The position numbers were made by a program, and so were the translations under genes. From Clostridiaceae bacterium (lineage in GTDB: Bacteria; Bacillota; Clostridia; DSM-8532): a stretch of 64,000 nt of DNA. The notes under the pieces were generated by a model. It was given only the letters and a program-made list of their open reading frames with translations, searched no databases and was not told the origin of the DNA. The stretch lies in NCBI GenBank assembly GCA_012719645.1, contig JAAXZX010000074.1:7050-71049 (forward strand), written 5' to 3'. Positions 2,524 to 4,933 of this stretch are shown in pieces. Numbering within the stretch: the first letter of the stretch is position 1; every line of letters starts with the position of its first letter.

Positions 2524-4128
2524 TCAGAAGTACAGCTTGGAAACTTTCAGTATGCCGTCGGTGGCGCGGAGTTTCTCGATGATGTCATCGGGAACATCGC
2601 TGTCCACGCTGACAAAGGATACCGCCTTGCCATCCTTGCTGTTCCGGCTCCACTGCATGGCCGCGATATTGATATTGTTCGCGCCCAGAAGTGTGCCCAC
2701 CTTGCCGATGATCCCGGGAATATCCCTGTTCTGCAGGGCAATGACATACTGTGTCGGTTCAAAGTCCAACTGGTACCCGAAGAAGTCCACAATCCTTATG
2801 CTGTCCCTGGCAAACACGGTTCCCGCTATGGATAAAGTCCTGTCCCTGCGATGGATCTTCACGGTGATCAGGTTGGTGTATTTATCTATGGTGCTGGATT
2901 TGCTTTCCACCAGTTCAATGCCCACCTCATCAAGCTTCATCAGGGCGTTTACAAAATTCACGTCTGAATTCATGATGGTGGAAAGCAGCCCTTTCACAAC
3001 CGAAAGGGTAATGGGCTTTGTATCCACGTTAACAAGGTCGCCGCTGTATATGATCTCAATCTTGTTTATCCTCTCCTTCTCAGCCTGGAAGTAAATGGCT
3101 CCAAGCTTCTCGCCAAGGCTGAGGAAAGGCTTGAGTTCGTTCAGATCGCCCGAGATATGGGGCATGTTCACCGCTGATACCAGTTCCCCGTTCAGGACGG
3201 CCTCCACCTGTTTTGCAACGCCCAGCGAGCAGTTCACATTTGCCTCCTTTGTGGAAGCGCCGAGATGGGGCGTAAAGATAACCTGATCCAGGTCAAGAAG
3301 CTTGTTCCAATAGTCCTGTTCTTCAGGGGCCTTGTTGAAATTGGGTTCAACCTCCTGCACGTCAAGGGCTGCCCCTGCCACATGGCCGGATACTATGGCG
3401 TCATAAAGCGCATCTTCATCAATCATGCCACCGCGGGCCACATTGACAATCCTCACACCCTTCTTGCACAGGGCAAGCTCACGACTGCCGATGAGGTTTT
3501 TGCTTTCAGGGGTCTTGGGTATATGGATGGAGATTACGTCGGCAACCTTCAAAAGGTCGTCAAGGGTTTCCATGCGCGAGATGCCCAGTTGCCTGACCCT
3601 CTCATCCGAGATATACGGATCGTATCCCACAACGTTCATGCCAACGCCCTTAAGCTTCCTGGCAACAATTGATCCTATCTTACCCAGGCCGATAATGCCT
3701 GCGGTTTTTCCTTCCAGTTCCTCACCGACAAACCTGTTCCTTCTGAAGTCCCTGTTCTTGGCAGCGTGATGGGCCTGGGGAATGTTCCTGAACACTGAAA
3801 AGATCATGCCGACACTGAACTCAGCCGCCGCATTGGTGTTGCCCTCAGGGGTGTTGACAACCGTTATGCCGCGCCTGGTGCATTCGGCCACATCAATGTT
3901 GTCCACTCCGTTGCCTGCCCTGCCGGCAACCTTCAGTTTCACTGCCTTGTCCAGAACTTCGCCCTTTACCTTTGTGGCGCTTCTTACGATGATTGCGTCG
4001 TATTCTCCGATAATCCCGCAAAGCTCCTCGTGCGATATCCCAAAAGGAGTGTCAACCTCAAAACCCTTGCTTTTGAGGTATTCAATACCATTGGGAGCCA
4101 TCTTGTCTGTTACAATGATTTTTGCCAT
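2524..4128 (-). CDS. serA: D-3-phosphoglycerate dehydrogenase (type I, with ASB and ACT domains)
   Basis: RAGNGVDNID, GIIGLGKIG (NAD), NVARGG, TPHLGAST (catalytic His); C-terminal ACT domain DIPGIIGKVGTLLGANNINIA. Confidence 0.95.
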   Translation of the reverse strand: MAKIIVTDKMAPNGIEYLKSKGFEVDTPFGISHEELCGIIGEYDAIIVRSATKVKGEVLDKAVKLKVAGRAGNGVDNIDVAECTRRGITVVNTPEGNTNAAAEFSVGMIFSVFRNIPQAHHAAKNRDFRRNRFVGEELEGKTAGIIGLGKIGSIVARKLKGVGMNVVGYDPYISDERVRQLGISRMETLDDLLKVADVISIHIPKTPESKNLIGSRELALCKKGVRIVNVARGGMIDEDALYDAIVSGHVAGAALDVQEVEPNFNKAPEEQDYWNKLLDLDQVIFTPHLGASTKEANVNCSLGVAKQVEAVLNGELVSAVNMPHISGDLNELKPFLSLGEKLGAIYFQAEKERINKIEIIYSGDLVNVDTKPITLSVVKGLLSTIMNSDVNFVNALMKLDEVGIELVESKSSTIDKYTNLITVKIHRRDRTLSIAGTVFARDSIRIVDFFGYQLDFEPTQYVIALQNRDIPGIIGKVGTLLGANNINIAAMQWSRNSKDGKAVSFVSVDSDVPDDIIEKLRATDGILKVSKLYF

Positions 4129-4212
4129 GACAATACCACCTTTTATCCAATAGTTTACACCGGACTATTGCCGGGGTGGAGGATCCCTTGCTGGAACCGT
4201 TTCCCTGTCCAC

Positions 4213-4242
4213 AAAAAGGAAAAAGTCAAACGAGCGTTTGAC
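4213..4242 (-). terminator. Intrinsic terminator in the serA leader (riboswitch expression platform)
   Basis: Minus strand GTCAAAC-GCTC-GTTTGAC followed by TTTTTCCTTTTT; lies between the aptamers and the serA start. Confidence 0.8.
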
Positions 4243-4299
4243 CTGCAGGTTTAAACCGCTATGCAGCAGTTCAACATGATCCGGCCATAAACCTCATTT

Positions 4300-4460
4300 C
4301 CTCTGTCCTTTTGCCTGAGAGATACGTCCCAACGCGGGACTTGCCCCTTCGGCGCCTTATCGGTCTCTCCAGAGTCCCGTCGGGTCGAGGTCTTTTTACC
4401 TGAGAGTGTTACTCCTTCGGTGTGCTGAAGCCCAGCATCTCTCCCTCGGCCTTCATCCGG
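4300..4460 (-). ncRNA. Tandem glycine riboswitch (two aptamers plus leader-linker kink-turn)
   Basis: Aptamer 1 (minus strand): GGAGAG...CACCGAAGGAGUAA...CUCUCAGGUAAAAAGAC. Aptamer 2: CUCUGGAGAGAC...CGCCGAAGGGGCAA...UCUCUCAGGCAAAAGGACAGAG. The 5' CCGGAUGAAG leader can pair with the CCCGACGG linker (K-turn). These match the known glycine aptamer consensus. Confidence 0.95.
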
Positions 4461-4512
4461 TGTTGGTTCACTGCTTCATCCTGTCCGGAATGATTGTGAA
4501 ATATATAACTTG

Positions 4513-4540
4513 ATTATACTCCAAGGCTTGGAATTGTCAA
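4513..4540 (-). promoter_or_regulatory. SigmaA promoter for the riboswitch-serA transcript
   Basis: Perfect TTGACA (4535-4540) - 16 nt - TATAAT (4513-4518) on the minus strand; the spacer contains the palindrome tccaag-g-cttgga. Confidence 0.8.
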
Positions 4541-4678: not shown

Positions 4679-4933
4679 ATGCGAAAGATTGCGGTTCAGG
4701 AAGGGCTGGACAGGGTCAGCGAGTACCTGTCCGAAAGGGGATACCAGGTGGAAAAGATCGGCTTCGACGCTGCGGCGCAGGTCAGGGGCAAGGATTACGA
4801 CGCCGTTGTGCTGTCAGGGATGAGCAGCAACTTCCTGGGCATTCATGACACCATAACCCGTGCCCCTGTAATTATCGCAACCGGCATGACTGAAGAGATG
4901 ATATACCAGCAGCTTGAAAAACGCCTTCAATAA
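4679..4933 (+). CDS. ykuS: YkuS / UPF0180 family small protein
   Basis: 84 aa; pattern IAVQEGL..V..YL..RGYQV...DYDAVVLSG...NFLGI; strong AGGAGG RBS. Confidence 0.75.
   Translation: MRKIAVQEGLDRVSEYLSERGYQVEKIGFDAAAQVRGKDYDAVVLSGMSSNFLGIHDTITRAPVIIATGMTEEMIYQQLEKRLQ

Follow-up and report, generated by a model that had tools for sequence, protein, structure and literature searches.

To our knowledge, work on glycine riboswitches has dealt almost wholly with ON switches that serve glycine cleavage; for natural OFF versions that act on the transcription of a biosynthetic gene, there are only predictions from gene context. A 64,000-nt stretch of DNA from a Clostridiaceae bacterium (contig JAAXZX010000074.1, positions 7,050 to 71,049; "the window" below is this whole stretch) carries two glycine aptamers in the 5' untranslated region (UTR) of serA, a gene of serine metabolism. 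Which way does glycine act at this locus, and which helices relay the signal? By its sequence the element is a two-aptamer glycine riboswitch, predicted to bind glycine, and we have little doubt that it is a riboswitch with an attenuator attached. Repression by glycine (an OFF switch) is the probable sign. In the best overall explanation, to which we give an even chance, the tandem riboswitch would attenuate serA transcription at an intrinsic terminator at 4243-4213, glycine causing termination, and a candidate antiterminator that we call AT1 would oppose the terminator in this sequence. Every element lies on the minus strand, with the RNA read from high to low coordinates. The parts on which the argument turns are listed here.

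4460-4301, minus strand: tandem glycine riboswitch (Rfam models)
4460-4452, minus strand: 5' strand of helix P0, CCG (4460-4458), and K-turn loop strand GAUGAA (4457-4452), from the RF03166 alignment
4451-4383, minus strand: glycine aptamer 1, with P1 4451-4444:4390-4383 (RF00504, 58.9 bits at 4456-4378)
4382-4375, minus strand: linker, with K-turn strand CGA (4382-4380), P0 3' strand CGG (4379-4377), then GA (RF03166 alignment)
4374-4301, minus strand: glycine aptamer 2, with P1 CUCUG 4374-4370:CAGAG 4305-4301 (RF00504, 57.9 bits)
87 nt from aptamer 2 to the terminator, minus strand: expression platform (from the sequence)
4299-4283, minus strand: segment s1 (AAAUGAGGUUUAUGGCC), 5' strand of AT1 and also of a helix with 4253-4247 proposed earlier
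4274-4251, minus strand: hairpin X, UUGAACUGCU (4274-4265), loop GCAU, AGCGGUUUAA (4260-4251), -10.3 kcal/mol
4243-4213, minus strand: intrinsic terminator, GGUCAAAC (4243-4236), loop GCUC, GUUUGACU (4231-4224), then UUUUCCUUUUU to 4213

Both aptamers lie well above the RF00504 gathering score of 32, the check that a first-pass annotation of this DNA had proposed, and aptamer 2 scanned alone gives 57.9 bits at 4382-4293. The nearly invariant core nucleotides are all present in both. The tandem model RF03166 aligns to 4460-4299 with the leader/linker helix included, and P0, which joins the two aptamers, maps to 4460-4458:4379-4377. However, the score against RF03166 (the glycine-GGAnGA variant, a family we take to be defined by its altered GGAnGA core) is 89 bits, below the gathering score of 110, and both aptamers have the canonical GGAGAGA. 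Hence, this is a standard glycine riboswitch and not the GGAnGA variant. The first-pass annotation had reported a promoter, a K-turn leader, two aptamers, a terminator and serA; all of them exist, at the right coordinates though on the minus strand throughout. The terminator, which it had placed about 55 nt from the aptamers, begins 57 nt past aptamer 2 and has no nucleotides in common with it. Its central statement, that a tandem glycine riboswitch controls serA through a distant intrinsic terminator, stands. By inspection, aptamer-1 P1 has a C.A mismatch (C4449 opposite A4385) in the window leader and in the related serA leaders L001, L002 and L088 (L-numbers denote such leaders), which are among five sequences of our alignment with it; L081 and L003 have a standard pair there.

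A survey of glycine riboswitch-serA pairs, suggested in the same annotation, shows that, among the 80 closest species representatives, about 45 have serA preceded by glycine aptamers. With metagenome contigs added, there are about 55-60 distinct leaders (Thermoclostridium and relatives). The terminator, GGUCAAAC-loop-GUUUGRCU followed by U's, recurs in nearly all of them. Judged from these sequences, tandem aptamers with a terminator before serA, seen in about 55 related species, are a clade-wide arrangement and not a chance one. One leader, L026, differs: its glycine aptamer pair abuts the ribosome-binding site of serA and the terminator scan found no terminator. It may exert the same control at the level of translation.

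We assessed covariation with RNAalifold on 54 unique tandem leaders. Compensatory (double) changes occur at 20 of 38 pairs and support the standard structure, including P3 and P0 (seven double changes at one P0 pair). The two P1 helices behave very differently. P1 of aptamer 1 varies freely, with 16-23 double changes per pair, whereas the CUCUG:CAGAG of aptamer 2 does not change in any of the 54 leaders, apart from 3 G.U cells. The difference suggests that aptamer-2 P1 is under an additional pairing constraint.

A likely source of that constraint is seen in most relatives. There, GACCUCUG, which consists of the end of the linker and the 5' strand of aptamer-2 P1, pairs with its exact reverse complement, CAGAGGUC. 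The latter repeats the P1 3' strand and lies at the terminator base. We refer to this helix as the alternative P1. A (C)AGAG or CCGGAG is conserved directly ahead of the terminator, and CCGGAG variants, where they take the place of CAGAG, stay complementary to CUCUGG. Among 59 unique leaders, the best spacer complement of the P1 5' strand overlaps the terminator base in 50 (10.4 expected at random), with energies of -9 to -16 kcal/mol versus -4.6 for P1 itself. In the fixed register of the alternative P1, 81% of 376 cells pair, against 30-50% with the partner slid. In unbiased folds of transcripts cut before the terminator 3' arm, the GACCUCUG and CAGAGGUC segments are paired in about 30 of 43 leaders. 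The case for the alternative P1 is thus one of conserved complementarity and of the CCGGAG variants, and it points to a putative antiterminator.

In these relatives, the longer alternative P1 would hold the base of the terminator 5' arm when glycine is absent, and a P1 locked by glycine would act as an anti-antiterminator and free the terminator. Such a design would leave aptamer-2 P1 unable to vary. We modelled it with constrained ensembles in which the transcript ends at the terminator 3' arm, the aptamers are held native and P1 is enforced or forbidden by soft penalties. Outside the lineage of the window, enforcing P1 puts the terminator ahead by +4 to +11 kcal/mol, and forbidding it brings the balance to about 0, an OFF-type shift of 3-10 kcal/mol. 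In the models, therefore, the platform of the relatives has a clean OFF design.

The nature of the aptamers points the same way. Torgerson et al. 2020 described tandem OFF switches that have three G-C pairs in site 2, not in site 1, together with a conserved K-turn, and found type-2 singlets to be almost always OFF (PMC7161355). In our alignment, the helix of putative binding site 2 (columns 161-163) is G-C, C-G, C-G, invariant but for one A-U cell; that of putative site 1 (columns 68-70) is A-U, C-G, C-G in 52 of 54 leaders. These leaders accordingly show three G-C pairs at site 2, fewer at site 1 and a conserved predicted K-turn, with the match of our columns to the published "binding site" pairs being our own reading of PMC7161355. 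In the distant serA leaders L063 and L066, aptamer 1 has shrunk to a short stem (a "ghost"), giving a type-2-like singlet, and GACCUCUG, AGAGGUC and the terminator are retained.

The window leader belongs to a group of nine (with L081, L001, L088, L003, L004, L002, L085 and L084; the window clade) in which this design is eroded. Its linker is short of one C (GGGACUCUGG or GGAACUCUGG), its flank reads CUGCAGGUC or similar, and what is left of the alternative P1 has at most six pairs plus a bulge (GAC(U)CUG:CAGGUC, about -4 to -7 kcal/mol). In turn, the segment that follows P1 pairs with its own terminator at -8 to -17.5 kcal/mol in the window clade, versus a median of about -4.5 elsewhere in the family. 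In the window leader this pairing is AT1: A4299-C4283 with G4243-U4228, 15 pairs and two bulges, -15.3 kcal/mol as a duplex and -25.4 when extended. Its 3' strand (4243-4228) comprises the terminator 5' arm, the loop and the beginning of the 3' arm, and the helix closes around hairpin X. The latter has 92% of cells paired in four relatives, with three one-sided changes. Against shuffled sequences and against all 21-mers of the window, AT1 has a P-value of about 0.013-0.016. Of the platform states computed at 37 C, hairpin X plus AT1 is the most stable (-25.6 kcal/mol), and hairpin X plus the terminator reaches -19.2 kcal/mol. It is chiefly the reciprocity between the strength of AT1 and the loss of the alternative P1 that leads us to take AT1 as the replacement antiterminator; whether it is the operative one in the window leader we judge to be evenly balanced.

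By sequence comparison, the 87-nt platform is also under strong purifying selection: the window leader is 94-95% identical to L081 and L001 over it, versus 65-71% at serA third codon positions, and s1 is identical in the three. A search of DNA metagenomes for platform variants at 80% likeness found only the identical organism covering 4195-4300; other matches align to the aptamers only. It is possible, although we would lean against it, that the clade kept its aptamer pair, terminator and target gene while the antiterminator was replaced, and that the platform in the lineage of the window is so nearly neutral in its balance that the sign could even have flipped there.

How might AT1 respond to glycine? 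Without the ligand, the P1 3' strand and the adjoining core would be free, and AT1 would be at its longest, able to reach AGAG at 4304-4301. With glycine, both would be held in the aptamer and a shortened AT1 would compete with a helix of s1 and 4258-4247, so that the terminator could form. In L081, L001, L088 and L084, AT1 indeed extends into the final three nucleotides of the P1 3' strand, the classical OFF overlap. When the P1 3' strand is added to the model, the balance for the platform alone moves by 0.7-3.2 kcal/mol toward AT1 (the OFF direction) in the window leader, L081, L001 and L088. Three groups of the window clade, L003, L002 and L084, still model as OFF: their terminator balance goes from +1.3 to +2.7 kcal/mol with P1 formed to -0.6 to -3.3 with P1 forbidden. 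Overall, homology, gene logic and aptamer asymmetry lead us to consider OFF the probable sign for the window leader.

Several results weigh against attenuation through AT1. Models of the window leader, L081, L001 and L088 favour AT1 over the terminator whether P1 is enforced (-2.5 to -4.5 kcal/mol) or forbidden (-1.5 to -3.6), so that no switch is predicted. An antiterminator of an OFF switch has to exclude both the terminator and the ligand-bound P1; in the window leader, AT1 excludes the terminator and overlaps P1 marginally only. A G.G mismatch splits the part shared with P1 from the remainder of AT1, and this part pairs with 4225-4222, which leave the polymerase only around the termination decision. 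AT1 lacks classical covariation, with one compensatory pair (in L088) in four sequences, and its P-value (about 0.015) is post hoc. Cognate AT1 duplexes are not significantly more stable than non-cognate ones within the window clade (-13.6 versus -12.3, sd 2.6). The alternative P1 of the wider family likewise has no double change in 47 sequences, hence no classical covariation, because both of its strands are conserved. Equilibrium folding of full-length transcripts was set aside. It gives the terminator in the relatives and AT1 in the window clade in any ligand state, and is uninformative for a kinetically controlled switch.

The same numbers can be turned around into an alternative that we hold to be unlikely, namely that the sign is inverted to ON in the sub-clade of the window. 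The platform alone, with hairpin X and AT1, would read through, and without glycine the free aptamer strands would capture s1 and let the terminator form. With the platform alone, and also with glycine bound, the models put AT1 ahead of the terminator by 2-4.5 kcal/mol in the window leader, L081, L001 and L088. The terminator 5' arm, at the decision point, is 93% paired when the platform is folded alone versus 67% in the full transcript. AT1 forms ahead of the synthesis of the terminator 3' arm, and the barrier from X plus AT1 to X plus terminator is 9-12 kcal/mol (barriers here are from findpath). Candidates for the capturing strands are UCUGG (4373-4369) with CCGGA (4284-4280), AGACCUC with GAGGUUU, and the CCGG of the leader, and the clade's best complement of the aptamer-2 P1 5' strand sits in s1 (AUGGCCGGAUCA, -7.5 kcal/mol). 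However, the clade as a whole does not conserve these helices of 5-7 bp, and the predicted glycine-free shift toward the terminator, about +1 kcal/mol, is within model error. The models give OFF for the sister groups L003, L002 and L084 and for the entire wider family, and the aptamers show the asymmetry of OFF switches (PMC7161355). Induction by glycine of the first enzyme of serine synthesis also makes little metabolic sense.

Antitermination through what remains of the alternative P1 has a still smaller claim. The window leader would then work as its relatives do, G4376-A-C-(U)-C-U-G4370 pairing with C4245-A-G-G-U-C4240, with AT1 incidental. This helix is homologous in position to the family-wide one. 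Over a slightly wider window of pairing its duplex reaches -7.0 kcal/mol and exceeds the -4.6 of P1, and in L088 the same six pairs plus bulge are the best spacer complement (-8.0). But the minimal strands give only -4.2 kcal/mol with a loop of more than 120 nt to close, L001 and L081 lose one further pair, and L003 and L004 lose all. In the model of the window leader, forbidding P1 produces no shift toward antitermination.

It is improbable, somewhat more so than the foregoing, that the terminator of the sub-clade has stopped responding to glycine altogether, being bypassed by AT1 or acting as a fixed attenuator, with the aptamers working through ribosome access, Rho or RNA stability. The failure of every thermodynamic model to predict a switch for the window leader fits such a decoupling, as does the degraded terminator of L088 (6 bp, 8-nt loop, poor U tract). 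CCACC at 4179-4175 could pair with the Shine-Dalgarno GGUGG at 4140-4136. Yet the terminator, U tract and s1 are identical in the window leader, L081 and L001, and their platforms are 94-95% identical, which argues for a working attenuator. We found nothing in the aptamers that is complementary to the ribosome-binding region, and the part of the leader after the terminator is the least conserved.

The relay through aptamer 1 proposed in the first-pass annotation is the weakest contender, and we regard it as very improbable. It had UUGAACUGC (4274-4266) pairing with GCAGGUCAA (4246-4238) as the antiterminator, which AGGUUUA (4294-4288) would block by pairing with UAAACCU (4253-4247); AGACCUC (4393-4387), the aptamer-1 P1 3' strand, would hold the overlapping GAGGUUU until glycine freed it, and termination would follow. 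The complementarities are real at these positions (as duplexes, -7.3, -5.6 and -7.4 kcal/mol for the antiterminator, AGGUUUA:UAAACCU and AGACCUC:GAGGUUU), except that the antiterminator has an internal A.G mismatch. Extended by GGCCG:CGGUU, the helix of s1 with UAAACCU has -11.7 kcal/mol and is isoenergetic with hairpin X, at a barrier of 6-8 kcal/mol. Opening of aptamer-1 P1 is not absurd given its C.A mismatch and a duplex of only -8.9 kcal/mol, and unconstrained RNAfold picks AGACCUC:GAGGUUU too.

Against this, the antiterminator alone amounts in context to -7.0 kcal/mol and loses to hairpin X, which takes up the same 5' strand, and to X plus terminator. In the only four sequences that could be aligned for it, 82.8% of cells pair, with no double changes and the A.G mismatch in four of four. 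L088 breaks it at two further places, while a G.U to A-U change keeps hairpin X. By inspection, GAGGUUU can pair fully with the aptamer-1 P1 3' strand only in the window leader, L081 and L001, which are near-identical; the pairing is partial in L002 and absent from L088, L003, L004 and L084. Freeing 4295-4288 would not bring termination in the model, which prefers X plus AT1 (-25.6 kcal/mol), with the terminator sequestered, over the extended AGGUUUA:UAAACCU helix plus terminator (-20.6). With the transcript ending at 4232, X plus AT1 has -20.3 versus -11.7 for the extended helix. If s1 were held by aptamer 1 as long as glycine is absent, termination is what the model would predict for the glycine-free state, opposite to the proposed sign. 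Moreover, the switch of the wider family is centred on aptamer 2. Of the earlier proposal, then, OFF remains the most likely sign, and the route through aptamer 1 is unsupported.

Two other pairings were considered and dropped. CC interrupts the U tract of the window terminator (UUUUUCCUUUUU), and the tract thereby complements AAAAGGA, the invariant core of aptamer 2 (4224-4213 versus 4312-4301). As a decision step, AGAG:CUUU plus AAAAGGA:UCCUUUU (P1 3' strand and core with the U tract) was rejected although the complementarity is real, since the U-tract bases are still inside the polymerase, or just leaving it, when the decision falls. In the L002 group (L002, L084 and L085) the tract is broken by GC (UUUUUGCUUUUUU) and complements GCAAAA of the aptamer-2 core in another register; a pairing of U tract and core thus arises in two different ways. 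The second, between the leader (4478-4457) and 4284-4266, appears in some minimum-energy folds. L081 and L001 carry four substitutions in it, two wobble-compatible and two disruptive.

Twenty metatranscriptome runs carry the locus as assembled contigs with flat depth per contig and without 3'-end information on termination. Breaks between RNA contigs track strain variation (4040-4071) or sequence common to riboswitches of other organisms (4335-4374). In runs X31, X33 and X35, short contigs cover only the aptamer-2 core (4335-4374), at a depth of 1,000-2,400 versus about 80-200 for the locus, and this indicates that glycine riboswitch leaders of other organisms are very abundant in these digester metatranscriptomes. 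In run X27, a contig over serA and its leader stops at 4494, about 12 nt past the expected start, and runs into Illumina adapter; many fragments may therefore end at 4494.

The rest of the locus consists of four further features.

4540-4513, minus strand: sigma-A/sigma-70-type promoter, with -35 TTGACA (4540-4535), 16-nt spacer and -10 TATAAT (4518-4513), 12 of 12 matches
4506-4461, minus strand: 5' leader ahead of the riboswitch, about 45 nt, kept in L081, L001, L003 and L004
4212-4129, minus strand: post-terminator 5' UTR, 84 nt, with small hairpins, CCACC (4179-4175) and Shine-Dalgarno GGUGG (4140-4136)
4128-2524, minus strand: serA, D-3-phosphoglycerate dehydrogenase, 534 aa (Pfam PF02826, PF19304, PF00389, PF01842)

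The promoter scan returned three promoter-like sites (0.4 expected), and transcription presumably starts near 4506. Promoter, riboswitch and serA share the minus strand, which puts the riboswitch in the 5' UTR of the gene. The K-turn strand GGAUGAAG is present twice on the minus strand, 23 nt apart, at 4481-4474 in the 5' leader and at 4458-4451. The upstream copy follows the palindrome UCCGGA (4488-4483). It is conserved in L081, L001, L003 and L004 and could be a decoy or an alternative partner for the linker. Downstream of the terminator, identity to the closest relatives falls to 76-77%, the lowest of the leader. The hairpins there are GGAA 4204-4201:UUCC 4196-4193 and CCGG 4174-4171:CCGG 4163-4160; both are found again in the clade, with U.G changes in the second. 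By inspection, CC(A/G)CC stretches resembling the CCACC, which could sequester the Shine-Dalgarno sequence, occur in L081, L001 and L002.

The open reading frame at 4128-2524 has 2-Hacid_dh, PGDH_inter (intervening) and ACT domains and hence encodes a long-form SerA. Over the matching region it shares 90% identity with Thermoclostridium caenicola; for uncultured relatives from anaerobic digesters the figure is 93-96%. On the same strand, serA is followed by genes for a LUD-domain protein (213 aa, 2335-1694) and a Ppx/GppA phosphatase (520 aa, 1615-53); a UPF0180 protein (84 aa, 4679-4933, plus strand) is divergent from the riboswitch promoter.

For genome annotation the outcome is ordinary: serA is under glycine riboswitch control. 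The interest lies in about 55 sequence-diverse serA leaders with a simple antiterminator design and in a sub-clade, that of the window, where the design appears to have been replaced. The clade is suited to asking how tandem aptamers drive an OFF platform, and whether aptamer 2 dominates OFF switches, as Torgerson et al. propose. If true, the replacement of the antiterminator would offer a natural set of cases in which to follow the rewiring of riboswitch expression platforms.

The association with serine synthesis has been noted before. Sun et al. 2013 reported a glycine riboswitch before serC and serA in one Clostridium species (PMC3766115). The same paper cites Kazanov et al. 2007 for a glycine riboswitch before serC/serA, and also cites phosphoserine aminotransferase with a glycine riboswitch in metagenomes; we give both as cited there. 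Sherlock et al. 2022 described a T-box Ser before serC-serA-serS that is itself preceded by a glycine riboswitch with two aptamers, called "likely OFF" (PMC9481103). Pairs of this kind are predicted to be OFF switches (PMC3766115, PMC9481103), in agreement with the sign favoured here. The window leader has the same gene association and the same predicted logic, that excess glycine is convertible to serine and serine synthesis would therefore be repressed. Unlike the case in PMC9481103, it has no T box in the Rfam scan, serA is the first gene and there is no serC. The earlier reports are gene-context predictions from one or two genomes, compared with about 55 distinct leaders of one clade here. 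The arrangement is thus less novel than the first-pass annotation had supposed, although our literature search found no experimental study of a glycine riboswitch before serine-synthesis genes.

The gcvT-gcvPA-gcvPB riboswitch of B. subtilis (RF00504; gcvT motif) resembles the window leader in its two aptamers with GGAGAG, CCGAAGG and CUCAGGCAAAAGGAC cores, its leader-linker K-turn (P0), its single platform after aptamer 2 and its control at an intrinsic terminator. In that ON switch, aptamer-2 P1 doubles as the antiterminator, and the terminator overlaps it (PMC7161355). In contrast, the terminator of the window leader is 57 nt downstream, a separate antiterminator is needed and the target is biosynthetic (serA) rather than glycine cleavage. 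A terminator well downstream with an extra antiterminator is the generic layout of an OFF riboswitch (PMC2258182). Glycine riboswitches already predicted to be OFF (sodium:alanine symporter leaders; V. cholerae and F. nucleatum, per Torgerson et al. 2020; type-2 singlets) share the K-turn and the site asymmetry. As in the serA leaders, where L063 and L066 have a ghost aptamer 1, their aptamer 2 is more conserved than aptamer 1; the class of gene differs.

The SAM-I, lysine, FMN and guanine OFF platforms are likewise built, as are the serA leaders, on three mutually exclusive helices (P1 as anti-antiterminator, antiterminator and terminator). In those platforms, the antiterminator is typically made from the P1 3' strand. 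Most serA relatives, in contrast, take it from the P1 5' strand and enclose the whole of aptamer 2, and the helix of the window clade would begin beside the P1 3' strand or inside it. If confirmed, two things may be new among such systems: that the relatives draw their antiterminator from the P1 5' strand, and that the lineage of the window has replaced it.

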